In this document: piece after piece, positions 1 to 16,375 of the stretch
Layout: the number at the start of each line of letters is the position of its first letter
Position numbering within the stretch: the first letter of the stretch is position 1
IMG/VR virus record: IMGVR_UViG_2718217868_000006
Strand: one strand, 5' to 3'
Length of the DNA stretch: 18,841 nucleotides
DNA from: a virus
Taxonomy: Duplodnaviria; Heunggongvirae; Uroviricota; Caudoviricetes
Notes under the pieces: generated by a model
Database searches by the model: none
What the model saw: the letters and a program-made list of their open reading frames with translations, nothing else
What the model was told of the DNA's origin: nothing
Made by a program: the position numbers and the translations under genes

Positions 1-585
1 CTATTCGATAATGGGTACTGTTGGCCATTCAATATCCGGTGCAGTTGTTGTATTAACACGGTTCAGCAACACCCGATATTTTTTCCAGGCTTCCAGCAAT
101 GAGGTTTCTTCCTCCGTTGCGATCTCCAGATCTACAGCATCCTGAAGTGGCGCTATATGCTCACTGGCTACCTGCATCAGGCTGTTTTTTGTTTCGTCCG
201 CCTCCCGGATCCGGAACAGTTTTTCTGCTTCCGTATCCTTCACCCAGGCTGTGCCGTTCCACTTCTGATATTCCCCTTCCGGCGATAACCAGGTGACATT
301 TTCCGGTAACGGACCGAGTTCAGAAATAAATAACGCGTCGCCGGAAGCCACGTCATAGACGGTTTTTCCCCGATGATCTTCAACGAGATGCCACGATGCC
401 TCATCACTGTTGAAAACAGCCACAAAGCCAGCCGGAATATCTGGCGGTGCAATATCGGTACTGTTTGCTGGCAGACCTGTATGAGGCGGAATATATGCGT
501 CACCTTCACCAATAAATTCATTAGTTCCGGCCAGCAGATTATAAATTTTTATGGTCCGTGGTTGTTCACTCATTCTGAATGCCAT
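1..585 (-). CDS. tfa: Tail fiber assembly protein (Tfa family)
   Basis: 194-aa ORF, ATG at 585..583, stop at 3..1. Translation recognised as lambdoid tail fiber assembly chaperone; immediately follows a tail-fiber C-terminal ORF with a TAATG stop/start overlap. Confidence 0.8.
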
Positions 586-1151
586 TATGCAAGCCTCACA
601 ATATAGTTAAATGCGATGTTTTTGACGGTGTTTTCCGCGTTACCAGCAGCGTTAACGGTGATGGTGTGTCCATGTGAACCAATCGCAACGGAGTGCGTGT
701 GTGCACCAATACCGACAGTATGTGCGTGTGCACCTGCAGATGCTGCTGTGCCGGACAGTGAGTGGCTATGGTTACCATCTGTACTGGTATTAGCTAACGC
801 CCCCGTAGACATACCTACTGAGCCTTGTACACCCCAGGTATTTTGACCTGAGCTTGTATAACCATATTGATAAGTATCTTTAAAAACACTGGGGTTAAAT
901 CGACGGCCATCTCTATGGCTGTGATTACCAGCTGCATTCGTGCTGCCACTTAAACTATGGGTATGCGCACCAGTGTTATTCGTGGATTTAGTGCCGTAAT
1001 CAAACGACGATGTGGTTTTCGTCCCCAAATCAGTACTGGATGCGCTGGCGCTGTGGGTATGCGATTTTATGCCGTCCTGTTCCTGAGACAATACGGCACG
1101 ACCACTGGCGGGCTTGCCCTTAATCGTCCAGCCACGCATATCAGGGATCAC
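585..1151 (-). CDS. Side tail fiber protein, C-terminal fragment (His-rich HxH repeats); likely a 5'-truncated remnant
   Basis: Translation is Gly/Ser/Thr/His-rich with repeated HTHS/HSHS/GAHTH motifs typical of phage tail-fiber distal domains. Frame stays open upstream to 1208 with no ATG (only GTG at 1151 or ATG at 1139), and no upstream tail genes exist. Confidence 0.65.
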
Positions 1152-1267
1152 GCCTGACGGATAAGCGGCTGCAAGTTTCGGGTATCGTATTAATTGATCT
1201 GCATCAACTTAACGTAAAAACAACTTCAGACAATACAAATCAGCGACACTGAATACGGGACAACCTC

Positions 1268-1501
1268 ATGTCAACGAAGAACAGAACCCGCAGAACAACA
1301 ACCCGCAACATCCGCTTTCCTAACCAAATGATTGAACAAATTAACATCGCTCTTGATCAAAAAGGGTCCGGGAATTTCTCAGCCTGGGTCATTGAAGCCT
1401 GCCGCCGGAGACTGTGCTCAGAAAAAAGAGTTTCTCCTGAAGCAAACAAAGAAAAGAGTGACATTACTGAATTGCTCAGAAAACAGATCAGACCAGATTG
1501 A
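1268..1501 (+). CDS. Small basic prophage protein with ribbon-helix-helix-like motif (YnfO/YlcI-like)
   Basis: 77-aa ORF with a basic N-terminus followed by an RFPNQMIEQINIALD...FSAWVIEACRRRL segment resembling a beta-strand/helix RHH fold. Family assignment is from memory of DLP12/Qin small ORFs. Confidence 0.5.
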   Translation: MSTKNRTRRTTTRNIRFPNQMIEQINIALDQKGSGNFSAWVIEACRRRLCSEKRVSPEANKEKSDITELLRKQIRPD

Positions 1502-1542
1502 AGCAATTTAGATAATCGTGCAGACTACGCCCCTCATATCAC

Positions 1543-1968
1543 ATGGAAGGTACTACAATGGCTCAGGTTGCCATTTTTAAACAAATATTCGATAAAGTGC
1601 GAAATAATTTAAACTATCACTGGTTTTATTCTGAACTAAAACGTCACAATGTCTCACATTACATTTACTATTTAGCCACAGAGAATATTCATCTTGTTCT
1701 TGAAAACGATAATACGGTTTTAATAAAAGGACAGGGTAAGGTTGTAAATGTAAGATTTTCAAAAAATAAATGCCTTATAGAAGCCACCTTAAAAGGATTC
1801 AAATCAGGAGAGTTATCATTTTACGAATACAGGAAAAATCTTGCTACAGCAGGGGTTTTCAGATGGATTACAAATATCCACGAAAACAAAAGGTATTACT
1901 ATACCTTTGATAATTCATTACTCTTTACTGAGAACATTCAGAACACTACACAAATATTTCCGCACTAA
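1543..1968 (+). CDS. DUF1398-family prophage protein (YdfO/YbcV-like)
   Basis: 141-aa ORF, AT-rich; translation resembles DLP12/Qin YbcV/YdfO proteins. True start may be the second Met at 1558. Confidence 0.55.
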
Positions 1969-2260
1969 ATCATAACGTCCGGTTTCTTCCGTGCCAGAAC
2001 CGGACTCGCTGGCATGATGAAATATGTGTACCCGGTAACCCCGGTGTGCATCGTTTTTGATTATTCCCGCACACTCGCGCAGAAGGAGTTCCCCGTCGGG
2101 CTACGGTCTCTGTTAATACGGGAATACGGCGACGATACAGCGCATGATGTGTCAGGCTTGAATACCTTTATCCTTTAAAAGGGATATCAGTTAAGTTATC
2201 CCGTGTAGGGTATAAGCCATTATCAAAGCCACTCTGTAGGAAGTGGCTTTTGTAATGGCA

Positions 2261-2285
2261 ATAAAAAGCCCCGCGAATGCGAGGC
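2261..2285 (-). terminator. Putative intrinsic terminator downstream of the lysis cassette
   Basis: On the - strand: AGCCUCGC-AUUC-GCGGGGCU stem-loop (one G-U wobble) followed by UUUUUAUU, about 175 nt after the Rz stop. Confidence 0.45.
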
Positions 2286-2459
2286 TAAATCCTGGTATTT
2301 GTAATGACTGGCTCTTATCTCAACGCAGCCCCTTACCGCGCGCAAAATGCTCAATATCAAGCATCAGCAATGAGATGTTTAATCTGGATTCACTCCAGAA
2401 GTGAGCACCACCCTGTCTACAGAGCCAGATGTGAAGGATGATGAGTAAAATTATCGCTA

Positions 2460-2927
2460 TCATCGAAGGCATTGCGTCCTGATGTATTCCTGAAGCGTTC
2501 TCAGTGCTGTTTGGTCGCGGATAATTCCGTCCCGGATACCGAGAACGTTTCGTCCAGCAACTGGAGAGAGTTCGACGGTGGCATCATTGCCCATGCCGGA
2601 GGCGCTGGAGGTTTCGGCTGAGGATGGCACAGGGCATTTTCCTTTGACGAGCACCCGACCACCATTATCAAGCTTGCGCCGAAGAGCATCATTTTCAGCT
2701 TTCGCATCAGCTAACTCCTTCGTATATTTATCATCGAGTGCATCAGCATCACGCTGGCGCTGCTGCATGTCAGTAATGGTGGCGTTCGCCTTCTCCAGTT
2801 CACTGGCCTTGTTATCGCGCTGTTCTTTGTAGGCGATTGCATTATCACGGTAATGATTAACAGCCCATGACAGGCAGACGATGATGCAGATAACCAGAGC
2901 GGAGATAATCGCGGTTACCCTGCTCAT
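2460..2927 (-). CDS. Rz: Rz i-spanin (inner-membrane spanin subunit)
   Basis: N-terminal transmembrane segment then a charged coiled-coil region; ATG at 2927 overlaps the endolysin stop (ATGA). The ORF track extends to 2939 but 2927 (MSRV...) gives the classic overlap. Contains an embedded Rz1 ORF. Confidence 0.85.
2501..2707 (-). CDS. Rz1: Rz1 o-spanin (outer-membrane lipoprotein), embedded in Rz in another frame
   Basis: 68-aa ORF wholly inside Rz. Signal peptide with lipobox VVGC-S and a proline-rich mature region ([11 protein letters not shown]), like lambda Rz1. Confidence 0.85.
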
Positions 2928-3421
2928 TGTTGCCCCCACAAACAGACCTCACGCTCAATCTCACGACGAGTCATCAGGCCTTTCCATTGCTTACCGCCAG
3001 CGTATGCCCAGCGACGTAGCTGGTCACATGCGCCCTTGATATCGCCCTGGTTTATTTTGCGAAGAAGAGTAGATGTTCTGAAATTGCCTGCGCCCACGTT
3101 ATAGACGAACGAGTAAAGAGCGCCGCGCGTTGTTTCCGGTATATCGACTTTGATGTACGGGTTAATTTGTCTGGCTACCGTGGCAAGGTCTTTATTCAGG
3201 AGGGCTTTGCATTCTGCTTCGGTATACGTTTTACCGGGAATGATGTCTTTTCCTGTATGCCCGTGACATACAGTCCATACGCCAACGATATCTTTGTATG
3301 GTATGTAGCTGACACCTTCCAGACCATCGTTACCACTTGGGCCAGTGATTAACACTGATGCTATAGCAATTGCTCCGCCACCAATAGCAGCAGCAACGGC
3401 TTTTCGTAATGATGGAGGCAT
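2924..3421 (-). CDS. R: SAR endolysin (phage lysozyme, phage 21 R-like)
   Basis: 165-aa ORF with a Gly/Ala-rich N-terminal signal-anchor-release segment ([18 protein letters not shown]) followed by a T4-lysozyme-like domain. Start overlaps the holin stop at 3421. Confidence 0.9.
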
Positions 3422-3636
3422 TATTCACCTCTCGCAGCCTTGCGCTTATCTTCTTTAATCTTGAAATAAAGGTTTGTCAGGTACGTCAGCAGGCCAAATA
3501 CCAGGCTACCCAGCACACCTATTGCTGCCCACTGTGAGGGCGTGACTTTATCGAGCAGCTGTAAAAACCAGTAACCGGCACTACCTGCTGAGGTGCCATA
3601 GGCGACACCCGTTGTTAACTTATCCATGGATTTCAT
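3421..3636 (-). CDS. S: Class II holin/pinholin (phage 21 S-like) with dual-start motif
   Basis: 71-aa ORF beginning MKSM (Met1 at 3636, Met4 at 3627), two transmembrane segments and a charged C-terminus; closely matches remembered S21. SD GGAGGTGAGG upstream. Confidence 0.9.
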
Positions 3637-3730
3637 AGCCTCACCTCCGCAAATAACGGATGGTGTACACGGTTCGGAACGAAGAGGAAAGGTATAGAAG
3701 TTACATTAGCGTAAGGCTTGAACATCTATT

Positions 3731-3761
3731 CAAAAAGAAAAACGCCGCGATTATTCTGGCG
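3731..3761 (-). terminator. Putative intrinsic terminator after the AraC-family gene
   Basis: On the - strand: short GC stem (CGCC...GGCG) followed by UUUUUCUUUUU, about 60 nt after the AraC-type ORF stop. Confidence 0.4.
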
Positions 3762-3823
3762 TAGCTGAAAGCATCATACAATTATCAAATACGAAAATTA
3801 CAAAATCATTAAAACGCATCACG

Positions 3824-4411
3824 TTACATCATGTCTTTTTCTAAAAAAAATCTTGATGAATATTGATGGAGAGGAACACCAAAATACCTTCTGAAAACAC
3901 TTACAAAATATGACGTGTTTTCATAACCGCATATCTCAGCAACTTTTCCAACAGAATATAAATTGTAGCTTAATAACCTTTCCGCCATCACCATTCGCTC
4001 TTCAAGAATTAACTTACTAAATGATAAGCCTTCGTGCTTTAATTTTCTTTTTAACAGACTTTCACTCAGATACAGTCTTGAAGATATATCACAAAGTCTC
4101 CATGCTGCAGATATATCCGTATGAATAATAGCCTTAACTTTACTTCCTAAACTATTAAGACATCCAAATAAAAAACTTTGCACTATTTTCTCTGAAGATA
4201 AGATAGCAAGACATGCAAGTGATATTTGATTTCTAACAAAATCCACAGTTCTGCCATCACAATTCAAGCATGCAATCAAGTTCTTTAACAATGAAAAATC
4301 TTCACATTCCACCATCAAGTATGCCGGATAAAACCTTCTTACAGAAAAAGGTGAGAGTGTGTTGCTTTTAAAGAAATCATTAACTGTTTTCTCTTCAACA
4401 TCTACGATCAT
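3824..4411 (-). CDS. AraC/XylS-family transcriptional regulator (short, AT-rich cargo gene)
   Basis: 195-aa ORF with a C-terminal double helix-turn-helix region typical of AraC-family proteins (…SFSKLILEERMVMAERLL…VGKVAEICGYENTSYFVSVFRRYFGVPLHQY). Markedly AT-rich coding and flanking DNA. Confidence 0.7.
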   Translation of the reverse strand: MIVDVEEKTVNDFFKSNTLSPFSVRRFYPAYLMVECEDFSLLKNLIACLNCDGRTVDFVRNQISLACLAILSSEKIVQSFLFGCLNSLGSKVKAIIHTDISAAWRLCDISSRLYLSESLLKRKLKHEGLSFSKLILEERMVMAERLLSYNLYSVGKVAEICGYENTSYFVSVFRRYFGVPLHQYSSRFFLEKDMM

Positions 4412-4904
4412 TACATGATCTATATTTGATGAAAAAAATCTTTTAAATTGTAATCAATGAGAACAGCACTTCCTTTTTAAACAAAATATCTTCTTTACCA
4501 ATTCGGACATCAAACGAGTTCAACACCAAAATAATAGAACATATGTATGGCATATTATCCACCTGATATCATTGGGGTTACACCAGGTAAGTATAGGTGG
4601 AAAATCAATATTCGCCAGTTCAACAATAAGGAAAATTTCATTGCATCACAAGTATAAAATTATGTATTTAACTCACAAAGACAAATTATTAAACCAATCT
4701 GTTATATTATATATAGCTGCGTGGAATCATAATATTATATATTTTGACTGGCATGTTTACCAACTTTAAGTTGCATCTCAATTGTTTCTTCAGCGTAAAC
4801 AGAGTTTTTATACAAACTGACACTCTGGGTATCATAGTGTAGTTTTTACGATTGTAAATATCCTGCATGCAGGAACTCATCCTTTTGGATGATATCGCAT
4901 ACAA

Positions 4905-5864
4905 TTAATTTACCATCAGTCTTAGAGCCAGTTCGTCCGGATAGGGATCGAAGTAATTCTGTGTAAGCAAGTAATCATTAGGATACTCACCCAGATAATG
5001 CTTCAGCAGAGTCAACGGCGCAAGAAGAGGTAATGTGCCAGAACGATAGTTAAGTATAACCTCGCTCAACTCTTTACGCTGGCGTGTACTTAAGTAGTTA
5101 CTAAAATACCCCTGTATATGCATCAGCACATTCGTGTGATTTTTACGTGATGCAGGTTTTCTGAGAATCGCCATCAGCTTATCACGATACACCTCAAAGT
5201 ATGATTCAAGGTCCGCCCACTCGTGTATTGCAGCCACAAATGGTCCCATATCTTTATAGCCTGCCTGACTATGCGCCAACAACTGAAGCTTATAACGACT
5301 ATGAAAAGCTAATAACTCTCTTCTTGATAATTTCTCCTTGTAAAGGTGATTGAGCTCATGCAAAGCAAAAACTCTTTCAACAAAATTCTCACGAAGCACT
5401 GGATCATGTAATCGCCCATCCTCTTCAACCGGTAGCCAGGAAAACTTTTCCATCAAAGTGCTCGTAAATAGTCCCACTCCATCTTTACGACCTCGATTAC
5501 CATTTTCATCATAGACACGCACGCGCTCCATGCCACAGCTGGGAGATTTAGCACAAACCACAAACCCCGATACATCCTTTAATTTGTCCATATAAGAACG
5601 ACTAAACTCTGTCATTCTCTCTGTCACATCCTCATTCTGGTCGTGGCTGAAACACATCCGTATATTTCCTTGCATCGAGCGCACAAGACGTAGAGCAGGA
5701 CGCGGAACTGGCAGCCCTATAGCCATTTCCGGACATACTGGTCTGAATGTTACCCATTCCACTAATTTGTCCATTAAAAAGTCAGCTCTTTTGTGACCAC
5801 CATCAAAACGAACAGCAGAACCGGCCAAACAACCGCTGATTCCAATCACAGGTTTTTTTATCAT
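4905..5864 (-). CDS. DUF523(TudS-like)/DUF1722 fusion protein, putative [4Fe-4S] thionucleoside desulfidase (RudS-like)
   Basis: 319-aa ORF. N-terminal half has the three-Cys signature of DUF523/TudS (GISGCLAG, RPVCPE, SPSCG); C-terminal half resembles YbgA-type DUF1722. SD AGGGGGAGAAT upstream of ATG at 5864. Confidence 0.65.
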   Translation of the reverse strand: MIKKPVIGISGCLAGSAVRFDGGHKRADFLMDKLVEWVTFRPVCPEMAIGLPVPRPALRLVRSMQGNIRMCFSHDQNEDVTERMTEFSRSYMDKLKDVSGFVVCAKSPSCGMERVRVYDENGNRGRKDGVGLFTSTLMEKFSWLPVEEDGRLHDPVLRENFVERVFALHELNHLYKEKLSRRELLAFHSRYKLQLLAHSQAGYKDMGPFVAAIHEWADLESYFEVYRDKLMAILRKPASRKNHTNVLMHIQGYFSNYLSTRQRKELSEVILNYRSGTLPLLAPLTLLKHYLGEYPNDYLLTQNYFDPYPDELALRLMVN

Positions 5865-6056
5865 ATTCTCCCCCTTGACTAATTCATTAACACATAAACT
5901 GTGTAGTGCACGGAATAAATTGCCTTTCTGGCGTCATCACTGACAATTTTTCTGTTATGGACTATTCCTAATATAGTATGAAAGTTCTTTAAGTGATCGG
6001 TCGTAATCATCTATCTTTCATACTTACTCTCAACTATCAAAAGTACAGGATTTATT

Positions 6057-6581
6057 ATGAAGTTATGGCCTGTGTTGACTGGCATTGCACTCTCTTTCAC
6101 TCTTATAGCATGTAAGGCCCCGACACCACCTAAAGGTGTGCAGCCGATTACAAATTTTGACGCCAACCGCTACCTCGGAAAATGGTATGAAATAGCTCGC
6201 CTCGAGAACCGGTTCGAACGTGGTCTGGAACAGGTCAGCGCTACTTATGGAAAACGGAACGACGGAGGGATTCGTGTACTTAACCGTGGATACGATCCAA
6301 CGAAAAATAAATGGAGCGAGAGCGAAGGTAAAGCATACTTTACTGGAGATACTAAAACTGCAGCATTGAAGGTTTCGTTTTTTGGCCCCTTCTATGGTGG
6401 CTATAATGTAATCAAACTGGATGATGAGTATAAGTATGCTCTTGTCAGTGGTCCGAACAGAGAATACCTATGGATTCTGGCAAGGACCCCAACTATTCCA
6501 GATAAAGTAAAAGCAGACTATGTGCGAACCGCTCAAAAGTTGGGATTCAATGTCAATGAATTATTATGGGTTAAACAATAA
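6057..6581 (+). CDS. Bacterial lipocalin (Blc-like outer-membrane lipoprotein)
   Basis: 174-aa ORF with lipoprotein signal (lipobox LIAC) and strong similarity to remembered E. coli Blc (…FDANRYLGKWYEIARLENRFERGLE…KVSFFGPFYGGYNVI…YLWILARTP…). Encoded opposite to late transcription. Confidence 0.85.
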   Translation: MKLWPVLTGIALSFTLIACKAPTPPKGVQPITNFDANRYLGKWYEIARLENRFERGLEQVSATYGKRNDGGIRVLNRGYDPTKNKWSESEGKAYFTGDTKTAALKVSFFGPFYGGYNVIKLDDEYKYALVSGPNREYLWILARTPTIPDKVKADYVRTAQKLGFNVNELLWVKQ

Positions 6582-6609
6582 AATCCCTACCCGAAATAAT
6601 ACTTATTAG

Positions 6610-6636
6610 AAAAAAACCAGCCTTTGGGGAGGCTGG
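6610..6636 (-). terminator. Intrinsic terminator downstream of Q (tR'-like)
   Basis: On the - strand: CCAGCC-UCCCCAAA-GGCUGG hairpin followed by U7, about 100 nt after the Q stop, where a lambdoid late-leader terminator is expected. Confidence 0.55.
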
Positions 6637-6736
6637 CTAAATCAGGAAACAAGCTGTTATATGATAATAACTACGTTGCGATTCCAACATTTAAAATGTT
6701 AGACTAATGACAATCAGACAGCAACTTTTCCTTTAA
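6637..6736 (-). promoter_or_regulatory. Putative late promoter PR' / Q-utilisation region
   Basis: Position only: between the Q stop and the tR'-like terminator. Candidate -35/-10 hexamers (TTGCTG, 17-nt spacer, TAACAT on the - strand) are weak and not verified. Confidence 0.35.
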
Positions 6737-7129
6737 TTATTTCGAACAATCAGCATCCATCTCCAATCGGAGATCCAACACCATCAGCATACCCTCCACT
6801 ACGCCCTCAGCTTTCTGAAGCATCCTGCCAACCCAACAATCAGATCGCCCATGCTTACGTGCAAGCGCCATAAAAGTCATGCCGCCGACATAATAGTCCA
6901 CCAATAAATCATGCAAATCGCTGTTGTTCTTTTTCAGACGGGCCATGCACCCGCAAATGATCATCGCGTCATCGTCACAACATTGTGGGCGAGATTTTAC
7001 TTTTGAAGGAATTAATCCCTTAAAACCGGCGGCAATGGACGACCAGGTCACATCTTCATGATTATTAGCCGCCCACGCTCCCCAACGCTCAAGAACCATC
7101 TGAATATCACGCATCAACTTACTCCACAA
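6737..7129 (-). CDS. Q: Late-gene antiterminator Q (DLP12 QuuD / phage 21-82 type)
   Basis: 130-aa ORF with a Cys-rich segment ([12 protein letters not shown]) and similarity to remembered QuuD; sits between rusA/ylcG and the lysis genes. Start may be the internal Met at 7114. Confidence 0.75.
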
Positions 7130-7199
7130 AACTCAGACCAGAACGCCAATTACAAGCAAAAATCAACAAAACAGTATTAGTTGATTGTTATCTCTGACT

Positions 7200-7340
7200 T
7201 CATACTCCTGCTCCTGTCAGTGTTTTGGCGTAATTCTTCAGTATTCGGTAATCGGTCAAAACAGAACCGGGGAAACGATATAAGCGCAGACGCCCCCAGC
7301 GGTGGCGAAGAAGTTCTGCCATATTAAACTCAAACATCAT
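7200..7340 (-). CDS. ylcG: YlcG-like small protein (46 aa)
   Basis: Not on the ORF track (under 60 aa). ATG at 7340 overlaps the rusA stop (ATGA); translation [46 protein letters not shown] matches remembered DLP12 YlcG, between rusA and Q. Confidence 0.6.
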
Positions 7341-7699
7341 TCATTCCCCATTTCGGTGATGGTCAGTTCCAGCCTCCCACCTTTGGTAACAGGCATCTTC
7401 ACAACGCGGTAATCAACGACCTGAGCATCATCCAGCCAGAAACCTGCTTTAGTGAGTGCGTCAAAAGCGGCTTTTTGCAGATTATCCAGGTCACGGCGAC
7501 GGCGATCCGGCATGTGGCACTCAATGCGGATTTTCACAGGCATAGTCAGGCCGATATCCAGCATTGCGTTTTTAATGATTCGGGCGACGTTATCGCGGTA
7601 TGCCTGCCCCTCTGCGCTGACGTGCGTGCGCCCGCGATTATGGCGGTAATAGCGATTATTGCTCGGAGGCCAGGGTAATGTGATGCTGTAGGTATTCAC
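7337..7699 (-). CDS. rusA: Holliday junction resolvase RusA
   Basis: 120-aa ORF, GTG start, near-identical to remembered E. coli RusA ([26 protein letters not shown]…). Confidence 0.9.
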
Positions 7700-7788
7700 G
7701 CCTTAATAACCCCCTCTTTCAGCCAGATACGCTCCTGTCCGGCAAAGTTACCTCTGCCGAAGTTGAGTATTTTTGCTGTATTTGTCAT
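7696..7788 (-). pseudogene. O: Replication initiator O remnant: first 20 codons of lambda O fused to 10 unrelated codons
   Basis: ATG at 7788 with lambda O N-terminus MTNTAKILNFGRGNFAGQER, then divergence ([10 protein letters not shown], stop) running into the rusA GTG. No iterons/ori or P gene follow. Confidence 0.8.
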
Positions 7789-7798
7789 AATGACTCCT

Positions 7799-7875
7799 GT
7801 TGATAGATCCAGTAATGACCTCAGAACTCCATCTGGATTTGTTCAGAACGCTCGGTTGCCGCCGGGCGTTTTTTA
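7799..7875 (+). ncRNA. oop: oop antisense RNA (about 77 nt) overlapping the 3' end of cII
   Basis: + strand sequence GTTGATAGATCCAGTAATGACCTCAGAACTCCATCTGGATTTGTTCAGAACGCTCGGTTGCCGCCGGGCGTTTTTTAT matches remembered lambda oop RNA with its terminator. Candidate po promoter: -35 TTGAGT 7763..7768, -10 CATAAT 7786..7791. Confidence 0.7.
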
Positions 7876-8114
7876 TTGGTGAGAATCGCAGCAACTTGTC
7901 GCGCCAATCGAGCCATGTCGTCGTCAACGACCCCCCATTCAAGAACAGCAAGCAGCATTGAGAACTTTGGAATCCAGTCCCTCTTCCACCTGCTGATCTG
8001 CGACTTATCAACGCCCACAGCTTCCGCTGTCTTCTCAGTTCCAAGCATTGCGATTTTGTTAAGCAACGCACTCTCGATTCGTAGAGCCTCGTTGCGTTTG
8101 TTTGCACGAACCAT
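7821..8114 (-). CDS. cII: Transcriptional activator CII
   Basis: Translation from the ATG at 8114 (MVRANKRNEALRIESALLNKIAMLGTEKTAEAVGVDKSQISRWKRDWIPKFSMLLAVLEWGVVDDDMARLARQVAAILTNKKRPAATERSEQIQMEF, 97 aa) matches remembered lambda CII. The track ORF extends upstream to 8174, but the phage start is 8114. Confidence 0.9.
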   Translation of the reverse strand: MVRANKRNEALRIESALLNKIAMLGTEKTAEAVGVDKSQISRWKRDWIPKFSMLLAVLEWGVVDDDMARLARQVAAILTNKKRPAATERSEQIQMEF

Positions 8115-8193
8115 ATGTAAGTATTTCCTTAGATAACAATTGATTGAATGTATGCAAATAAATGCATACACCATAGGTGTGGTTTAATTTGAT

Positions 8194-8225
8194 GCCCTTT
8201 TTCAGGGCTGGGATGTGTAAGAGCG
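8194..8225 (-). promoter_or_regulatory. nutR (boxA CGCTCTTA and boxB GCCCTGAAAAAGGGC)
   Basis: On the - strand between cro and cII: boxA at 8225..8218, boxB hairpin at 8208..8194, matching the lambda nutR consensus. Confidence 0.8.
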
Positions 8226-8233
8226 GGAATGTC

Positions 8234-9588
<1,355 letters not shown>

Positions 9589-9638
9589 TCCCCACCTCAA
9601 TCTCGATAACCAAAAAACAAACTATTTTCCGTTTAAAA

Positions 9639-9707
9639 ACAATGGAGTTTGTTTTTCACGCCCCTTTTTTACAATATTTCTTGTTTACAACATACAATCT
9701 TTCTTGT
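9639..9707. promoter_or_regulatory. OL operator region (three 434-type operators) with PL
   Basis: Three ACAA-N6-TTGT 14-mers at 9639..9652 (ACAATGGAGTTTGT), 9671..9684 (ACAATATTTCTTGT), 9694..9707 (ACAATCTTTCTTGT). Candidate PL: -35 TTTACA 9685..9690, -10 TAATTT 9708..9713, directed toward N. Confidence 0.75.
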
Positions 9708-9752
9708 AATTTTAAGCCATCAGCAGGACGCACTGACCACCATTGAAGGTGA

Positions 9753-9783
9753 TGCTCTTAAAAATTAAGCCCTGAAGAAGGGC
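9753..9783 (+). promoter_or_regulatory. nutL (boxA variant TGCTCTTA and boxB GCCCTGAAGAAGGGC)
   Basis: boxB hairpin at 9769..9783 identical to the lambda nutL boxB; boxA at 9753..9760 differs from the CGCTCTTA consensus at its first base. Confidence 0.8.
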
Positions 9784-9941
9784 AGCATTCAAAGCAGAAG
9801 GCTTTGGGGTGTGTGATACGAAACGAAGCATTGGCCGGAAGTGCGAATCCGGATTAGCTGCAAATGAGCCAATCGTGGGGTGTTTTCGTTCAGGACTACG
9901 ACTCACACACACCACCAAAGCTAACTGACAAGAGAATCCAG

Positions 9942-10265
9942 ATGGATGCACAAACACGCCGCCGCGAACGTCGCGCAGAGAAACAGGCTCAATGGAAAGC
10001 AGCAAATCCCCTGTTGGTTGGGGTAAGCGCAAAACCAGTTAACCGCCCTATTCTCTCGCTGAATCGCAAACCGAAATCACGAGTAGAAAGCGCACTGAAT
10101 CCGATAGACCTTACGGTGCTGGCTGAATACCACGAACAGATTGAAAGCAACCTGCAACGTATTGAGCGCAAGAATCATCGAGTTTGGTATAGCAAGCCAA
10201 GTGAGTTCGGTATAACTTGTCAAGGAAGACAAAAGGTTAAAGGGAAATCCATTCCATTGGCATGA
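9942..10265 (+). CDS. N: Antitermination protein N (lambda-like)
   Basis: Translation from the ATG at 9942 begins MDAQTRRRERRAEKQAQWKAANPLL, the arginine-rich boxB-binding motif of lambda N; 107 aa. The track ORF starts upstream at 9864. Confidence 0.9.
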   Translation: MDAQTRRRERRAEKQAQWKAANPLLVGVSAKPVNRPILSLNRKPKSRVESALNPIDLTVLAEYHEQIESNLQRIERKNHRVWYSKPSEFGITCQGRQKVKGKSIPLA

Positions 10266-10273
10266 GGTACGTA

Positions 10274-11143
10274 ATGAAGAAAATTGATTACAAGTCCATA
10301 CCAAAACCAATAGACTCAGCATCAGAGCGAAAAAAACACAAAAAAGAGGCTGAAAAATTAGCAAATTATATCAGTTTTATTAGAAACAATGCTCACGGCG
10401 ATGGCGACAGGAAGTTGCTTTCAGATGCCCGGACCCAAGCGTTCAGCATACTTCGTAAGCAGATGCAATATCGTCTTCATCCAGGCTACATAATTGAAAT
10501 TCGCCCGACTGAAAGACAATTGTTCTTATTAAACTCTGTCTTTGACTTTGTAAACGTAGTTGGAGATCTTATCGACAGGTCTGTAGATAAGGCTCCTGAT
10601 ACAAATAGTTTTCTTCTAACAAATAAAGAATACTTATATGGTAAATTTGGTATAAACGGATGGCAAAAATATGTACGATTCTTACGTGCATTCGTTGATG
10701 CGTATAAAAATTCCGACATGATTTATACATATTTGCCTGGTGGTAATAATTGTACGCTTTCGGCAGACAATAGAATATTCATACCTATACTTGGTCTTGG
10801 GCTGATTAATGCAGTAAATGAAAGAGATGTTATAATTGTTAAGCAGTGGCGAAAGCATGAGGGATATAGATATCTGCCATGCTTTGATATATTAAAAATA
10901 CAGAATAAATTCTATGTAAAAATTAAATATAAAGAAGATGTTTTCTTCCTCAGAAAAAACAAAGATCTTTTACAAGAACTTTCTGGGACAATAGATGTCA
11001 TCGTAGGTTCTAGGTTTATAAAAGAACTGAAAGAAAGCAGGTCTTTCTCTCGTGTAGAGATAAGCGAGTCAGAGTTATGGGGTATATCAAATAATCCTGT
11101 AAACCACGCTCACCAACGAAATCCAAACAAAAAGTGGTCATAA
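10274..11143 (+). CDS. Hypothetical protein, 289 aa, AT-rich; unrecognised gene in the N-to-ea10 slot
   Basis: Long ORF immediately after N (alternative ATG at 10262 overlaps the N stop; ATG at 10274 has a GAGG SD). No family recognised by eye; rich in Lys/Asn/Tyr/Phe. Followed by a strong terminator. Confidence 0.6.
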   Translation: MKKIDYKSIPKPIDSASERKKHKKEAEKLANYISFIRNNAHGDGDRKLLSDARTQAFSILRKQMQYRLHPGYIIEIRPTERQLFLLNSVFDFVNVVGDLIDRSVDKAPDTNSFLLTNKEYLYGKFGINGWQKYVRFLRAFVDAYKNSDMIYTYLPGGNNCTLSADNRIFIPILGLGLINAVNERDVIIVKQWRKHEGYRYLPCFDILKIQNKFYVKIKYKEDVFFLRKNKDLLQELSGTIDVIVGSRFIKELKESRSFSRVEISESELWGISNNPVNHAHQRNPNKKWS

Positions 11144-11166
11144 CCCGCTCAGGCGGGTTTCATTTT
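11143..11166 (+). terminator. Intrinsic terminator after the 289-aa gene
   Basis: ACCCGC-TCAG-GCGGGT hairpin followed by TTCATTTT immediately after the stop codon. Confidence 0.65.
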
Positions 11167-11285
11167 CACGCAAACAACAGAATAAACACTGCACTGTGTA
11201 TTCATTCCAACGAGTGAATACACGGAGCAATGTCGCTCGTAACTAAACAGGAGTCGACTTGTTCTGATTATTGGAAATCTTCTTT

Positions 11286-11311
11286 GCCCTCCAGTATGAG
11301 GGCGATTTTTT
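11286..11311 (+). terminator. Putative intrinsic terminator (tL2-like position)
   Basis: GCCCTC-CAGTAT-GAGGGC hairpin followed by GATTTTTT, upstream of the ea10-like gene. Confidence 0.5.
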
Positions 11312-11331
11312 ATCTGTGAGGATATGAATAG

Positions 11332-11700
11332 ATGTCAAACATCAAAAAATACATCATTGATTACGACTGGAAAGCATCAATAGAAATTGAAATCGACCAT
11401 GACGTAATGACAGAGGAAAAACTTCACCAGATTAATAATTTCTGGTCAGACTCTGAATACCGACTCAATAAACACGGCTCTGTATTAAATGCTGTATTAA
11501 TCATGCTGGCGCAACATGCTCTGCTTATAGCAATTTCAAGCGACTTAAATGCATATGGTGTTGTGTGTGAGTTCGACTGGAATGATGGAAATGGTCAGGA
11601 AGGATGGCCTCCAATGGATGGTAGCGAAGGAATAAGAATTACCGATATCGATACATCAGGAATATTTGATTCAGATGATATGACTATCAAAGCCGCCTGA
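11332..11700 (+). CDS. ea10: Ea10-like early protein (122 aa)
   Basis: 122-aa acidic ORF with SD GAGGA, adjacent to cIII as in lambda. Assignment rests on position and length; the sequence itself is not recalled with certainty. Confidence 0.5.
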   Translation: MSNIKKYIIDYDWKASIEIEIDHDVMTEEKLHQINNFWSDSEYRLNKHGSVLNAVLIMLAQHALLIAISSDLNAYGVVCEFDWNDGNGQEGWPPMDGSEGIRITDIDTSGIFDSDDMTIKAA

Positions 11701-11772
11701 GCGCGGCGTTACCGCATACCAATAACGCTTCACTCGAGGCGTTTTTCGTTATGTATAAATAAGGAGCACACC

Positions 11773-11937
11773 ATGCAATATGCCATTGCAGGGTGGCCTG
11801 TTGCTGGCTGCCCTTCCGAATCTTTACTTGAACGAATCACCCGTAAATTACGTGACGGATGGAAACGCCTTATCGACATACTTAATCAGCCAGGAGTCCC
11901 AAAAAATGGATCAAACACTTATGGCTATCCAGACTAA
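11773..11937 (+). CDS. cIII: CIII (FtsH/HflB inhibitor stabilising CII)
   Basis: Not on the ORF track (54 aa). Translation [54 protein letters not shown] matches remembered lambda CIII; SD AAGGAG upstream. Confidence 0.9.
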   Translation: MQYAIAGWPVAGCPSESLLERITRKLRDGWKRLIDILNQPGVPKNGSNTYGYPD

Positions 11938-12049
11938 ATTCACTATCGCCACTTTTATTGGCGATGAAAAGATGTTTCGTGAGGCCGTCGACGCTTATAA
12001 AAAATGGATATTAATACTGAAACTGAGATCAAGCAAAAGCATTCACTAA
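11906..12049 (+). CDS. kil: Kil (host cell-division inhibitor)
   Basis: 47-aa [50 protein letters not shown], overlapping the 3' end of cIII and the 5' end of gam as in lambda. Confidence 0.8.
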
Positions 12050-12420
12050 CCTCCTTTCCTGTTTTCCTAATCAGCCCGGCATTTCGCGGGCGATATTTTC
12101 ACAGCTATTTCAGGAGTTCAGCCATGAACGCTTATTACATTCAGGATCGTCTTGAGGCTCAGAGCTGGACGCGTCACTACCAGCAGATCGCCCGTGAAGA
12201 GAAAGAGGCAGAACTGGCAGACGACATGGAAAAAGGTCTGCCCCAGCACCTGTTTGAATCACTCTGCATCGATCATTTACAACGCCACGGGGCCAGCAAA
12301 AAAGCCATTACCCGTGCGTTTGATGACGATGTTGAGTTTCAGGAGCGCATGGCAGAACACATCCGGTACATGGTTGAAACCATTGCTCACCACCAGGTTG
12401 ATATTGATTCAGAGGTATAA
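12004..12420 (+). CDS. gam: Gam (RecBCD inhibitor)
   Basis: 138-aa ORF near-identical to remembered lambda Gam ([16 protein letters not shown]…[10 protein letters not shown]), including the internal Met for the short form. Confidence 0.95.
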
Positions 12421-12425
12421 AACGG

Positions 12426-13211
12426 ATGAGTACAGCACTCGCAACGCTGGCTGGGAAGCTGGCTGAACGCGTCGGCATGGATTCTGTCGACCCACAGGAA
12501 CTGATCACCACTCTTCGCCAGACGGCATTTAAAGGTGATGCCAGCGATGCGCAGTTCATCGCATTGCTGATCGTCGCCAACCAGTACGGCCTTAATCCGT
12601 GGACGAAAGAAATTTACGCCTTCCCTGACAAGCAGAACGGCATCGTTCCGGTGGTGGGCGTTGATGGCTGGTCCCGTATCATCAATGAAAACCAGCAGTT
12701 TGATGGCATGGACTTTGAGCAGGACAATGAATCCTGCACATGCCGGATTTACCGCAAAGACCGCAATCATCCGATCTGCGTTACCGAGTGGATGGATGAA
12801 TGCCGCCGCGAACCATTCAAAACCCGCGAAGGCAGAGAAATCACGGGGCCGTGGCAGTCGCATCCCAAACGGATGTTACGGCATAAAGCCATGATTCAGT
12901 GTGCCCGTCTCGCCTTCGGATTTGCTGGTATCTATGACAAGGATGAAGCCGAGCGCATTGTCGAAAATACCGCATACACTGCAGAACGTCAGCCGGAACG
13001 CGACATCACTCCGGTTAACGATGAAACCATGCAGGAGATTAACACTCTGCTGATTGCCCTGGATAAAACATGGGATGACGACTTATTGCCGCTCTGTTCC
13101 CAGATATTTCGCCGCGACATTCGCGCATCGTCAGAACTGACACAGGCCGAAGCAGTGAAAGCTCTTGGATTCCTGAAACAGAAAGCCACTGAGCAGAAGG
13201 TGGCTGCATGA
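12426..13211 (+). CDS. bet: Bet (Red-beta single-strand annealing recombinase)
   Basis: 261-aa ORF near-identical to remembered lambda Bet ([37 protein letters not shown]…). Confidence 0.95.
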
Positions 13212-13888
13212 CACCGGACATTATCCTGCAGCGTACCGGAATCGACGTGAGAGCTGTCGAACAGGGGGATGATGCGTGGCACAAATTACGGCTCGGCGTC
13301 ATCACCGCTTCAGAAGTTCACAATGTGATAGCAAAACCCCGCTCCGGAAAAAAGTGGCCTGACATGAAAATGTCCTACTTCCACACCCTGCTGGCTGAGG
13401 TTTGCACCGGTGTGGCTCCGGAAGTTAATGCTAAGGCGCTGGCATGGGGAAAACAGTACGAGAACGACGCCAGAACTCTGTTTGAATTCACTTCCGGCGT
13501 GAATGTTACTGAATCCCCGATCATCTAACGCGACGAAAGTATGCGTACCGCCTGCTCTCCCGATGGTTTATGCAGTGACGGCAATGGCCTTGAGCTGAAA
13601 TGCCCGTTTACCTCCCGGGATTTCATGAAGTTCCGGCTCGGTGGTTTCGAGGCCATAAAGTCGGCTTACATGGCCCAGGTGCAGTACAGCATGTGGGTGA
13701 CGCGAAAAGATGCCTGGTACTTTGCCAACTATGACCCGCGTATGAAGCGTGAAGGCCTGCATTATGTCGTGGTTGAGCGGGATGAAAAGTACATGGCGAG
13801 TTTTGACGAGATGGTGCCGGAGTTCATCGAAAAAATGGACGAGGCACTGGCTGAAATTGGTTTTGTATTTGGGGAGCAATGGCGATGA
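13208..13888 (+). pseudogene. exo: exo (lambda Red 5'-3' exonuclease) interrupted by an in-frame ochre codon at 13526..13528
   Basis: A single frame of 226 codons matches lambda Exo throughout ([11 protein letters not shown]…GEQWR), but codon 107 is TAA where lambda has Tyr (…ESPII[15 protein letters not shown]…). The ORF track shows the two halves as 13208..13528 and 13541..13888. Confidence 0.85.
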
Positions 13889-14067
13889 AGCATCCTCACG
13901 ATAATATCCGGGTAGGTGCGATCACTTTCGTCTACTCCGTTACAAAGCGAGGCTGGGTATTTCCCGGCCTTTCTGTTATCAGAAATCCCCTGAAAGCACA
14001 GCGGCTGGCTGAGGAGATAAATAATAAACGGGGGGCTGTATGCACAAAGCATCTCCTGTTGAGTTAA
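13885..14067 (+). CDS. Lambda early-left small ORF (orf60a-like)
   Basis: Small ORF overlapping the end of exo in lambda-like arrangement. Start assigned to the second Met (60 aa) by analogy with lambda; it could be 13879. Confidence 0.55.
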
Positions 14068-14231
14068 GAACGTGTATCGAGATGGCACATAGCCTCGCTC
14101 AAATTGGAGTCAGGTTTGTGCCAATACCAGTAGAAACAGACGAAGAATTTCATACGTTAGCCGCATCCCTTTCACAAAAGCTGGAAATGATGGTGGCGAA
14201 AGCAGAAGCAGATGAGAGAGACCAGGTATGA
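14040..14231 (+). CDS. Lambda early-left small ORF (orf63-like)
   Basis: 63-aa ORF in the lambda-like position between exo and ea22. Confidence 0.6.
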   Translation: MHKASPVELRTCIEMAHSLAQIGVRFVPIPVETDEEFHTLAASLSQKLEMMVAKAEADERDQV

Positions 14232-14307
14232 CAACCACTGAATGCATTTTTCTGGCAGCGGGCTTCATATTCTGTGTGCTTATGCTTGCCGACATGGGGC
14301 TTGTTCA

Positions 14308-14523
14308 ATGACACCTCAGCAAGAAAACGCCCTTCGCAGCATTGCCCGTCAGGCTAATTCTGAAATCAAAAAAGCCAGACAGCAGTTTCCGGATAAAAAC
14401 GTCGATGACATTTGCCGTAGCGTACTGAAGAAGCACCGCGAAACGGTAACGCTGATGGGATTCACACCGACTCATTTAAGCCTGGCGATCGGCATGTTAA
14501 ACGGCGTCTTTAAGGAACGGTGA
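14308..14523 (+). CDS. Lambda early-left small ORF (orf61-like); start uncertain
   Basis: Track ORF 14242..14523; the internal ATG at 14308 (MTPQQENALRSIARQANSEIKKARQQF…) is the more plausible start. Name assigned by position only. Confidence 0.45.
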   Translation: MTPQQENALRSIARQANSEIKKARQQFPDKNVDDICRSVLKKHRETVTLMGFTPTHLSLAIGMLNGVFKER

Positions 14524-14621
14524 GCATGAAAAACAAAATCATCATGGAGCTACAGGCTCCTTTTTTATTATTCGCATTCACCCTCAAGCGTATTAACCAA
14601 CAATTCAGGGATTAATGAAAG

Positions 14622-14843
14622 ATGGCAGACATCATTGATTCAGCATCAGAAATTGAAGAATTACAGCGCAACACAGCAATAAAAATGCGCCGCCTGAACC
14701 ACCAGGCTATATCTGCCACTCATTGTTGTGAGTGTGGCGATCCGATAGATGAACGAAGACGCTTGGCCGTTCAGGGTTGTCGGACTTGTGCAAGTTGCCA
14801 GGAGGATCTGGAACTTATCAGTAAACAGAGAGGTTCGAAGTGA
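14622..14843 (+). CDS. TraR/DksA-family C4 zinc-finger protein (lambda orf73-like)
   Basis: 73-aa ORF with a CxxC…CxxC motif (CCECGDPIDERRRLAVQGCRTCASC) characteristic of the TraR/DksA zinc finger; position matches lambda orf73. Confidence 0.8.
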   Translation: MADIIDSASEIEELQRNTAIKMRRLNHQAISATHCCECGDPIDERRRLAVQGCRTCASCQEDLELISKQRGSK

Positions 14844-15388
14844 GCGAAATTAACTCTCAGGCACTGCGTGAAGCGGCAGAGCAGGCAATGCATGACGACT
14901 GGGGATTTGACGCAGACCTTTTCCATGAATTGGTAACACCATCGATTGTGCTGGAACTGCTGGATGAACGGGAAAGAAACCAGCAATACATCAAACGCCG
15001 CGACCAGGAGAACGAGGATATTGCGCTAACAGTAGGGAAACTGCGTGTTGAGCTTGAAACAGCAAAATCAAAACTCAACGAGCAGCGTGAGTATTACGAA
15101 GGTGTTATCTCGGATGGGAGTAAGCGTATTGCTAAACTGGAAAGCAACGAAGTCCGTGAAGACGGAAACCAGTTTCTTGTTGTTCGCCATCCTGGGAAGA
15201 CTCCTGTTATCAAGCACTGCACTGGTGACCTGGAAGAGTTTCTGCGGCAGTTAATCGAACAAGACCCGTTAGTAACTATCGACATCATTACGCATCGCTA
15301 TTACGGGGTTGGAGGTCAATGGGTTCAGGATGCAGGTGAGTATCTGCATATGATGTCTGACGCTGGCATTCGCATCAAAGGAGAGTGA
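14840..15388 (+). CDS. ea22: Ea22 early protein
   Basis: 182-aa ORF in the lambda ea22 position with matching length and a central coiled-coil-like segment; start overlaps the preceding stop. Confidence 0.75.
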   Translation: MSEINSQALREAAEQAMHDDWGFDADLFHELVTPSIVLELLDERERNQQYIKRRDQENEDIALTVGKLRVELETAKSKLNEQREYYEGVISDGSKRIAKLESNEVREDGNQFLVVRHPGKTPVIKHCTGDLEEFLRQLIEQDPLVTIDIITHRYYGVGGQWVQDAGEYLHMMSDAGIRIKGE

Positions 15389-15579
15389 GATCGGTTTTGT
15401 AAAAGATAACGCTTGTGAAAATGCTGAATTTCGCGTCGTCTTCACAGCGATGCCAGAGTCTGTAGTGTCAGATGATGACCGTACTCAAACATCGGGTTGA
15501 GTATTATCTTACTGTTTCTTTACATAAACATTGCTGATACCGTTTAGCTGAAACGACATACATTGCAAGGAGTTTATAA

Positions 15580-15861
15580 ATGAGTATCAATGAGTTAGAG
15601 TCTGAGCAAAAAGATTGGGCGTTATCAATGTTGTGCAGATCCGGTGTCTTGTCTCCATGCAGACATCACGAAGGTGTTTATGTAGATGAAGGTATAGATA
15701 TAGAGTCGGCATACAAATATTCCATGAAGGTTTATAAGTCTAATGAAGACAAATCCCCATTCTGCAATGTGCGAGAAATGACTGATACCGTGCAAAATTA
15801 TTATCACGAGTACGGTGGAAACGATACTTGCCCTCTCTGTACAAAACATATAGATGATTAA
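15580..15861 (+). CDS. ea8.5: Ea8.5 early protein (Cys/His-containing)
   Basis: 93-aa ORF in the lambda ea8.5 position and length, with Cys/His pairs (CRHHEG…CPLCTKH) suggesting a metal site. Confidence 0.75.
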   Translation: MSINELESEQKDWALSMLCRSGVLSPCRHHEGVYVDEGIDIESAYKYSMKVYKSNEDKSPFCNVREMTDTVQNYYHEYGGNDTCPLCTKHIDD

Positions 15862-15949
15862 ACCCAATATTACATAACAATCCTCGCACTCGCGGGGATT
15901 TATTTTATCTGAACTCGCTACGGCGGGTTTTGTTTTATGGAGATGATAA

Positions 15950-16117
15950 ATGCACTTCCGAGTCACAGGAGAATGGAATGGAGAGCCATTCAACAGAGTT
16001 ATCGAAGCGGAGAACATCAACGACTGCTACGACCACTGGATGATATGGGCGCAGATAGCACATGCAGACATAACCAATATTCGAATTGAAGAACTGAAAG
16101 AACACCAAGCCGCCTGA
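15950..16117 (+). CDS. Small ORF (55 aa) between ea8.5 and xis (lambda orf55-like)
   Basis: Not on the ORF track. ATG at 15950, translation MHFRVTGEWNGEPFNRVIEAENINDCYDHWMIWAQIAHADITNIRIEELKEHQAA, stop at 16115..16117 embedded in a terminator hairpin. Confidence 0.5.
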   Translation: MHFRVTGEWNGEPFNRVIEAENINDCYDHWMIWAQIAHADITNIRIEELKEHQAA

Positions 16118-16129
16118 TGGCGGTTTTTT
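16109..16129 (+). terminator. Intrinsic terminator upstream of xis
   Basis: CCGCC-TGAT-GGCGG hairpin followed by TTTTTT. Confidence 0.6.
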
Positions 16130-16156
16130 CTTGCGTGTAATTGCGGAGACTTTGCG

Positions 16157-16375
16157 ATGTACTTGACACTTCAGGAGTGGAACGCTCGCCAGCGACGCCC
16201 AAGAAGCCTTGAAACAGTTCGTCGATGGGTGCGCGAATGCAGGATATTCCCTCCTCCGGTTAAGGATGGAAGAGAATATCTGTTCCACGAATCAGCGGTA
16301 AAGGTTGACTTAAATCGACCAGTAACAGGTAGCCTTTTGAAGAGGATCAGAAATGGGAAGAAGGCGAAGTCATGA
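16157..16375 (+). CDS. xis: Excisionase Xis
   Basis: 72-aa ORF matching remembered lambda Xis (MYLTLQEWNARQRRPRSLETVRRWVRECRIFPPPVKDGREYLFHESAVKVDLNRP…), overlapping the int start. Confidence 0.95.
   Translation: MYLTLQEWNARQRRPRSLETVRRWVRECRIFPPPVKDGREYLFHESAVKVDLNRPVTGSLLKRIRNGKKAKS

Follow-up and report, generated by a model that had tools for sequence, protein, structure and literature searches.

RudS proteins, which join a TudS (DUF523) domain to a DUF1722 domain in one polypeptide, were described as a family by Jamontas et al. (Nucleic Acids Res 2024; PMC11417400). Here, we analyzed a rudS gene carried by a lambdoid prophage in an 18,841-nucleotide stretch of DNA (IMG/VR record IMGVR_UViG_2718217868_000006), which is referred to in full as the window. 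In the published work, RudS_vir and five other RudS orthologs lowered the 4-thiouridine (s4U) content of E. coli tRNA 4.7- to 26-fold when overexpressed, while neither stand-alone TudS nor E. coli YbgA affected it (PMC11417400). RudS_vir is gp66 (H3V29_gp66) of Escherichia phage 1H12, so that a phage-encoded member of the family has been tested experimentally (PMC11417400).

Among the six orthologs, RudS_vir showed the lowest tRNA activity relative to its protein level and gave the shortest lag to a uracil auxotroph growing on 4-thiouracil; the growth supported by any RudS fell short of that supported by TudS, and the authors concluded that thiouracils are not the primary substrates of RudS (PMC11417400). 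Overexpression of the Pseudomonas putida enzyme, RudS_KT, shortened the growth delay caused by ultraviolet A from ~105 to ~60 min, and methionine substitutions at its residues E51, R60, S111 and S113 abolished activity (PMC11417400). DUF1722 serves as the tRNA anticodon-arm binding module of RudS, with S243 and R244, and also N202, N203 and T246, of RudS_KT contacting the anticodon region (PMC11417400). With regard to regulation, Salmonella RudS_ST (ORF319) is controlled by a MerR-family regulator, and the Pseudomonas gene sits in a LitR/PhrB light-inducible operon (PMC11417400). E. coli is said to lack RudS both in that study and in a 2026 review in Microbiology and Molecular Biology Reviews (PMC13602947).

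A prophage-encoded RudS and its predicted active site

The window gene most probably encodes a RudS eraser of s4U at tRNA position 8 (s4U8) which, in the phage, would most likely be transcribed with the late operon after inactivation of the CI repressor, a reading to which we assign a probability of roughly 85%. The minus-strand open reading frame (ORF) starts with an ATG at position 5864, ends at 4905, stop codon included, and encodes 319 amino acids. Its features are as follows:

4905-5864, minus strand: rudS coding sequence, a TudS-DUF1722 fusion (ORF; Pfam; 93% identity to RudS_vir; RefSeq WP_000592543.1, 'YbgA family protein')
5418-5846, minus strand: TudS/DUF523 catalytic domain, residues 7-149 (PF04463; alignment to TudS 6z92; family conservation)
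4938-5291, minus strand: DUF1722 helical domain, residues 192-309 (PF08349; anticodon-arm role from PMC11417400; Ser239/Arg240 placed via proxy sequences)
5868-5876, minus strand: Shine-Dalgarno-like AAGGGGGAG just 5' of the rudS ATG (read from the sequence)

Both domains were recovered by Pfam far above the curated cut-offs: PF04463 (2-thiouracil desulfurase/DUF523) matched residues 7-149 over profile positions 1-141 of 141 (E=4.5e-40), and PF08349 (DUF1722) matched residues 192-309 over positions 1-117 of 117 (E=5.8e-41). The published definition of a RudS is a TudS domain followed by DUF1722, each matched across more than 80 amino acids with E<0.001 (PMC11417400), and this is the arrangement of the window protein, with TudS/DUF523 at the N-terminus and DUF1722 at the C-terminus of a single polypeptide. 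The NCBIfam YbgA equivalog model matched the C-terminal half only (residues 160-315; 190.8 bits vs. a cut-off of 237), and it is because of this match that RefSeq names the product a 'YbgA family protein'.

A first-pass annotation of the same DNA, which gave no strand, had called the gene a prophage-borne DUF523/DUF1722 fusion with three cysteine motifs, and a candidate TudS-type desulfidase acting on tRNA 4-thiouridine. The fusion was borne out by the two full-length Pfam matches, and all three motifs (GISGC12LAG, RPVC44PE and SPSC110G) were found in the ORF. The prophage location was likewise confirmed, the window being 100% identical to a lambdoid prophage remnant in the chromosome of E. 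coli H6, and the proposed activity is that of the RudS family, whose 93%-identical member RudS_vir lowers tRNA s4U (PMC11417400). The identification is thus correct but already known, since the family is published and a close phage member has been tested. The word 'candidate' understates this prior knowledge, and the s4U assay proposed in the annotation has in essence already been performed for the phage enzyme RudS_vir. For close relatives, both the chemistry and the action on tRNA have been established; we infer them for the window protein.

For residue conservation, 139 full-length members of the family at 37-56% identity, drawn from 1166 representatives below E=1e-30, were aligned with the window protein (n=140). 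The relevant positions were kept as follows:

Cys12, predicted cluster ligand: 138/140
Cys44, predicted cluster ligand: 138/140
Cys110, predicted cluster ligand: 136/140
Glu46, catalysis: 139/140
Arg55, orienting arginine: 138/140
Ser107, catalysis: 139/140
Ser109, catalysis: 132/140
Arg19, aligned with the phosphate-binding Arg17 of TudS: 138/140

The numbering of Cys12, Cys44 and Cys110 is the same in RudS_vir and RudS_ST (Table 1 of PMC11417400), and equivalents of the predicted cluster-ligating Cys17, Cys49 and Cys114 of RudS_KT are all present in the window protein. The RudS_KT residues E51, R60, S111 and S113 correspond to Glu46, Arg55, Ser107 and Ser109, which are also all present. Proxies with KT-like numbering stood in for RudS_KT in the residue mapping. 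Ser239 and Arg240 align with Ser243 and Arg244 of the proxies that share the KT cysteine numbering, which drift by one residue at 150-205; we tentatively regard these two residues as the probable equivalents of the anticodon-contacting Ser243 and Arg244 of RudS_KT. The only solved relative found by sequence was TudS 6z92 (E=1.3e-5, residues 6-58 aligned).

In the mechanism that we propose, Cys12, Cys44 and Cys110 would hold a [4Fe-4S] cluster with a free fourth iron, to which the thiocarbonyl sulfur of a flipped-out s4U would bind. Glu46, positioned by Arg55, Ser107 and Ser109, would activate a water molecule for attack on C4, and the sulfur would depart via a [4Fe-5S] intermediate, leaving uridine. 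Docking of DUF1722 on the anticodon arm would redirect a desulfidase for small molecules (TudS) to tRNA. In the phage, inactivation of CI, for example by RecA after DNA damage, would lead to transcription of the late operon including rudS, and the resulting loss of s4U from host tRNA would prevent near-UV s4U8-C13 crosslinks and the ensuing slowdown of translation.

Between the alleles of the window and of 1H12 there are 50.5 synonymous and 23.5 non-synonymous changes, which gives substitution rates of 0.29 (dS) and 0.032 (dN) and a ratio (dN/dS) of 0.11, indicating purifying selection on rudS. The ORF was full-length and stop-free in all 80 related IMG/VR loci, and two isolated complete phages carry the gene, 1H12 and IdasGreatGrand, the latter at 99.4% protein identity. 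In view of the low dN/dS and the intact state in 80/80 viral loci, rudS is not a chance ORF.

Position of rudS in the late region and its distribution in E. coli

rudS is the first sense gene after a Q21-type antiterminator and a tR'-like hairpin, and it lies ahead of the holin gene and, in the phage, ahead of the endolysin and virion genes as well. The surrounding features are the following:

6737-7114, minus strand: Q antiterminator of the Q21 family, upstream of rudS (PF06530, E=2.5e-51; PDB Q21 6p18, E=1.9e-8; RefSeq)
6615-6638, minus strand: 9-bp hairpin and U-run, tR'-like putative terminator of the late leader (terminator scan; fold z = -2.9)
6057-6581, plus strand: blc-like lipocalin lipoprotein gene, divergent from rudS (PF08212, E=7e-44; synteny)
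2460-3636, minus strand: lysis cassette with holin (3421-3636), lysozyme (2924-3421) and Rz-like (2460-2927) genes (ORFs; RefSeq essD/rrrD/lysis protein)

The hairpin lies ~100 nt beyond the stop codon of Q, at the place expected for a lambdoid tR', and a terminator scan found no terminator-like site between rudS and holin. The gene for the Blc-like lipocalin, which has a lipoprotein-type signal (…LIAC), runs antisense to the late transcript presumed here. The order Q, blc (opposite strand), rudS, araC-like, holin and lysozyme was kept in 74 of the 80 viral loci; in 1H12 and IdasGreatGrand the same order is followed by terminase, and the only route from Q to the lysis and terminase genes passes through rudS. 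Because this order is so widely kept, co-transcription of rudS with the late operon under Q antitermination is likely. The slot between Q and the lysis genes is the position of stx in Stx phages, and no tRNA genes such as those of Stx phages were found in it.

Promoter scanning was uninformative, with 12 sites vs. 10.8 +/- 3.2 in shuffled sequences, and the 192-bp blc-rudS intergenic region (5865-6056) contained a single weak sigma-70-like site with 9 of 12 matches. These results speak neither for nor against a separate rudS promoter at work in lysogens. The sole Rfam match fell on the terminator hairpin below threshold (28.6 bits vs. a cut-off of 50) and was taken as chance. A PADLOC search for defence systems returned no match for RudS, Blc or the AraC-like protein.

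The presumed SOS-sensitive switch at the head of this cascade is a repressor encoded further upstream:

8555-9187, plus strand: CI-type repressor with helix-turn-helix and S24 peptidase domains and the motifs RAG, GDSM and FKKL (Pfam; sequence)

We take these motifs, after LexA and lambda CI, to be the cleavage site and the Ser/Lys dyad. Since CI has LexA-like motifs and rudS lies in a predicted Q-dependent late operon, SOS-linked expression of rudS is plausible. The further idea in the first-pass annotation, that such an enzyme could alter UV-stress signalling in a prophage induced through UV/SOS, is speculative.

A 2.2-kb rudS-blc stretch was found on prophages in 1153 of 5426 complete E. 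coli genomes (~21%); it was covered to at least 80% in 1044 of these 1153 genomes, and nearly all copies were chromosomal. Further, 126 IMG/VR viral contigs hold a close rudS relative, and 12 deposited E. coli phage genomes contain the full gene. The published view that RudS is missing from E. coli is right for K-12 and wrong for the whole species. The RudS paper used BL21(DE3) as its host, and a rudS prophage at the lambda attachment site (attλ) of this strain, which would have pointed to a silent gene in lysogens, was considered and rejected: the locus holds only the DE3 lambda derivative and no rudS.

All 18,841 bases of the window are identical to the chromosome of E. coli H6 (NZ_CP010170, 3399121-3417961), in which the lambdoid prophage sits at attλ between bioA/ybhB and ybhC and corresponds to window positions 1-17423. 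This prophage is a remnant. cII (7821-8114) is directly followed by rusA (7337-7699), so that the O, P and nin genes are missing; of the head and tail genes, only a truncated tail-fibre fragment and a gene for tail-fibre assembly are left; and an internal stop splits exo (13208-13888). The gene downstream of rudS is also damaged:

3824-4553, minus strand: AraC-family regulator gene, a frameshifted pseudogene (two tblastn pieces in different frames)

The frameshift lies near 4431-4450. The araC-like gene is intact (243 amino acids) in 1H12, IdasGreatGrand and most viral loci, and its product belongs to PHROG 1450, labelled as of unknown function. The genes for the CI repressor, cro, cII, N, Q, holin, lysozyme and Rz are intact in the remnant. 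Since these regulatory and lysis genes remain while O/P and the head and tail genes are lost, SOS derepression could drive the Q-dependent late operon and lysis without producing virions. At least 80% of this particular remnant was found in only 12 complete E. coli genomes.

In one E. coli record, a 403-amino-acid protein matches RudS at 100% identity over 92% of the query and has an additional GGDEF domain (PF00990). A diguanylate cyclase gene flanks the prophage in H6, and the RudS-GGDEF protein may be a deletion fusion or an annotation artefact.

Origin of the blc-rudS module

The module differs from its surroundings in base composition, the araC-like gene having 30-32% GC and rudS and blc 42-45%, compared with ~50% in the flanking phage genes. 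The nearest relatives outside E. coli are chromosomal Enterobacterales RudS proteins of 69-76% identity. Their genes were seen in two chromosomal settings. One, in Citrobacter, Klebsiella and Serratia, has rudS closing a cluster for SnoaL, SDR, amine oxidase, DUF1365, CFA synthase, DUF2878 and DUF3833 proteins. The other, in Enterobacter, Leclercia, Lelliottia, Buttiauxella and Kluyvera, has a divergent blc beside rudS, as in the phage, with a product 74-82% identical to the window lipocalin. A MerR/MlrA-like regulator is encoded directly upstream of rudS, on the same strand, in 13 chromosomal loci; among them are the majority of those with blc, and also that of Salmonella enterica subsp. diarizonae.

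Of the 80 viral loci, 79 have blc together with rudS, as do 13 chromosomal loci of Enterobacter-like genera. The MerR/MlrA-like regulator was absent from the window and from 80/80 viral loci. No conserved regulatory sequence upstream of rudS was found in common with Kluyvera, the intergenic region being conserved among phage alleles only. Since the blc-rudS pair is Enterobacter-like but the MerR regulator is missing from the viral loci, the phage appears to have taken up an Enterobacter-type unit and to have exchanged its native regulator for phage late control.

A Proteus myxofaciens ATCC 19692 prophage (locus L156, 2373-8754) encodes a DUF968 protein, a Q homolog (44% identical), a phage lysozyme/amidase and RudS; the gene for a pertussis-toxin-S1-like ADP-ribosyltransferase and two small ORFs come next. 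Its RudS is 57% identical to that of the window vs. 85% to a Providencia RudS without nearby phage genes, and because of this difference the Proteus prophage appears to have gained rudS separately, also downstream of Q and here beside a toxin moron.

Several other loci were noted in the course of this comparison. In Citrobacter braakii (L003-L005), rudS ends a nine-gene cluster that resembles the light/oxidative-stress clusters of the RudS paper and includes an unannotated 175-amino-acid ORF. This ORF was considered as a counterpart of the phage lipocalin and was rejected, as it showed no similarity and only a weak chalcone-isomerase-like match. In Salmonella Derby and a metagenome contig (L006/L007), a gene for a RudS 74% identical to the window's adjoins ttcA (tRNA 2-thiocytidine synthase) and a DUF1367 phage-type gene; its location differs from that of the SPI-2 ORF319, and it may be another prophage remnant. 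A 'Candidatus Nanosynbacter' metagenome-assembled genome (L115) and an 'uncultured Clostridiales' record (L092) contain either E. coli-phage-type rudS/araC-like/holin genes (94-100% identical) or the enterobacterial CFA-synthase cluster with rudS, and both contigs are probably mis-binned or contaminant.

Alternative readings and comparison with known systems

Several points weigh against a late-expressed s4U8 eraser. The allele for which experimental data exist, RudS_vir, is 21 substitutions away from the window allele. It was the least tRNA-active ortholog per protein and gave the fastest adaptation to 4-thiouracil, so that its preferred substrate in vivo may be other than tRNA, and the RudS activity data all come from overexpression (PMC11417400). 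Late-operon expression is predicted from gene order and consensus scans only. An AlphaFold2 model built from a shallow alignment (22 homologs, each at least 70% identical) reached a mean predicted local distance difference test score of 50.6, too poor for confirming the fold, and only its helical C-terminal half was moderately confident. Finally, the prophage is defective in H6, and a benefit to the phage does not apply in that strain.

As an alternative, rudS and blc may form a lysogenic-conversion cassette with a promoter of its own that is active while the prophage is repressed; it would benefit the bacterium, for example through a shorter near-UV growth delay, and not lytic growth. Such a cassette is possible, though we lean against it, and it can coexist with late-operon read-through. 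In its favor, rudS has stayed intact (dN/dS 0.11) in a remnant that lost O/P and the virion genes and in which exo, the tail fibre and the araC-like gene became pseudogenes; ~21% of complete E. coli genomes retain the gene; the base composition of the module is unlike that of the phage backbone; and divergent blc-rudS is also a chromosomal unit in Enterobacter, Leclercia, Lelliottia and Kluyvera. However, the position and strand of rudS are those of a late-operon passenger, the 192-bp intergenic region offers one weak site (9 of 12) in a region where promoter-like sites are no commoner than in shuffles, and the MerR/MlrA-like regulator of the 13 chromosomal loci is missing from the window and from all 80 viral loci. 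The same integrity of the gene makes it very improbable that rudS has lost its function and is decaying along with a dead prophage: although its neighbors are pseudogenes (araC-like frameshifted, exo with an internal stop, tail fibre truncated), the ORF is full-length with every catalytic residue, it is intact in 80/80 viral loci with a dN/dS of 0.11, and viable isolated phages carry it.

A different substrate was also weighed, namely that phage RudS is mainly a TudS-like salvage desulfidase and no tRNA eraser, and that it supplies phage synthesis with uracil nucleotides from free 4-thiouracil, 4-thio-UMP or the products of RNA breakdown. The short lag of the uracil auxotroph on 4-thiouracil with RudS_vir and its smaller drop in tRNA s4U despite a relatively high protein level (PMC11417400) point in this direction, as does the preference of stand-alone TudS for 4-thio-UMP. 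We nevertheless consider salvage improbable as the main function. RudS_vir still lowered tRNA s4U significantly, no RudS reached TudS-level growth, and the authors deny that thiouracils are primary substrates (PMC11417400); moreover, DUF1722 is complete and constrained, with 12 substitutions over residues 156-319 (164 residues) at an overall dN/dS of 0.11, and the probable anticodon-contact residues Ser239/Arg240 appear to be retained.

Returning to the late-expressed eraser, a function at the time of induction is suggested by the fixed late-operon position of rudS. In its most extended form, a Q-dependent late rudS, gained separately in at least two prophage lineages, would erase host s4U8 during SOS-induced lytic growth, the E. 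coli lambdoid phages having received it from an Enterobacter-like blc-merR-rudS locus and the Proteus prophage from a Morganellaceae gene. This combination of late function and separate sources is tentative, and as a whole rather unlikely. If late erasure of s4U8 does occur, it would represent a phage edit of the host tRNA modification state that uncouples translation and ppGpp signalling from near-UV damage, and the near-UV response, described in textbooks as RudS-free, would also be altered in the roughly one-fifth of E. coli strains that have the gene.

We found no literature on phage RudS biology in the library searched. What remains of interest is the possible late-operon role, the apparently independent gain of rudS by two prophage lineages, and its presence in about one-fifth of sequenced E. 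coli strains, which corrects the published view. The E. coli prophage rudS matters for near-UV/s4U physiology across strains and offers a native genetic system. PHROG 3275 and RefSeq ('YbgA family protein') still label RudS as unknown, and the functional name could be propagated.

Compared with the single-domain relatives, the window protein combines what each of them has alone. E. coli YbgA (b0707), a stand-alone DUF1722, matches its C-terminal half (residues 160-315, below the model cut-off) but is without a catalytic domain and leaves s4U unaffected. TudS (stand-alone DUF523, PDB 6z92) has the same catalytic domain, with a three-cysteine [4Fe-4S] site, a free iron and the Glu/Ser/Ser set, but it is without DUF1722, prefers 4-thio-UMP and thiouracils, and causes no drop in tRNA s4U in vivo. 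The reference enzyme known from biochemistry and mutagenesis, RudS_KT (PP_0741, Pseudomonas putida KT2440), shares the two domains and the conserved catalytic Glu, Arg, two Ser and three Cys. Its lineage is far more remote, the aligned proxies being 37-56% identical to the window protein, in which Asn26 and Tyr25 of RudS_KT are replaced by Asp21 and Phe20; a Y25F mutant of RudS_KT was wild-type-like (PMC11417400).

RudS_ST/ORF319 (STM1389) of Salmonella enterica and the other chromosomal Enterobacterales RudS proteins are closer, with 319 amino acids, the same cysteine numbering and ~69-76% identity, and the Enterobacter-type loci have the divergent blc in common with the phage. The chromosomal genes, however, are found downstream of a MerR/MlrA-like regulator or at the end of the SDR, amine oxidase, DUF1365, CFA synthase and DUF3833 cluster, whereas the phage gene has neither context and is placed under a Q antiterminator. 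RudS_vir is of the same length (319 amino acids), aligns without gaps at 298/319 identical residues (93%), with the same Cys12, Cys44 and Cys110, and differs by 21 substitutions, 9 in residues 1-155 and 12 in residues 156-319. The module of Q, blc, rudS, the araC-like gene and holin is common to 1H12 and the window; 1H12, however, is a complete phage, whereas the window copy lies in a defective prophage beside a frameshifted araC-like gene.

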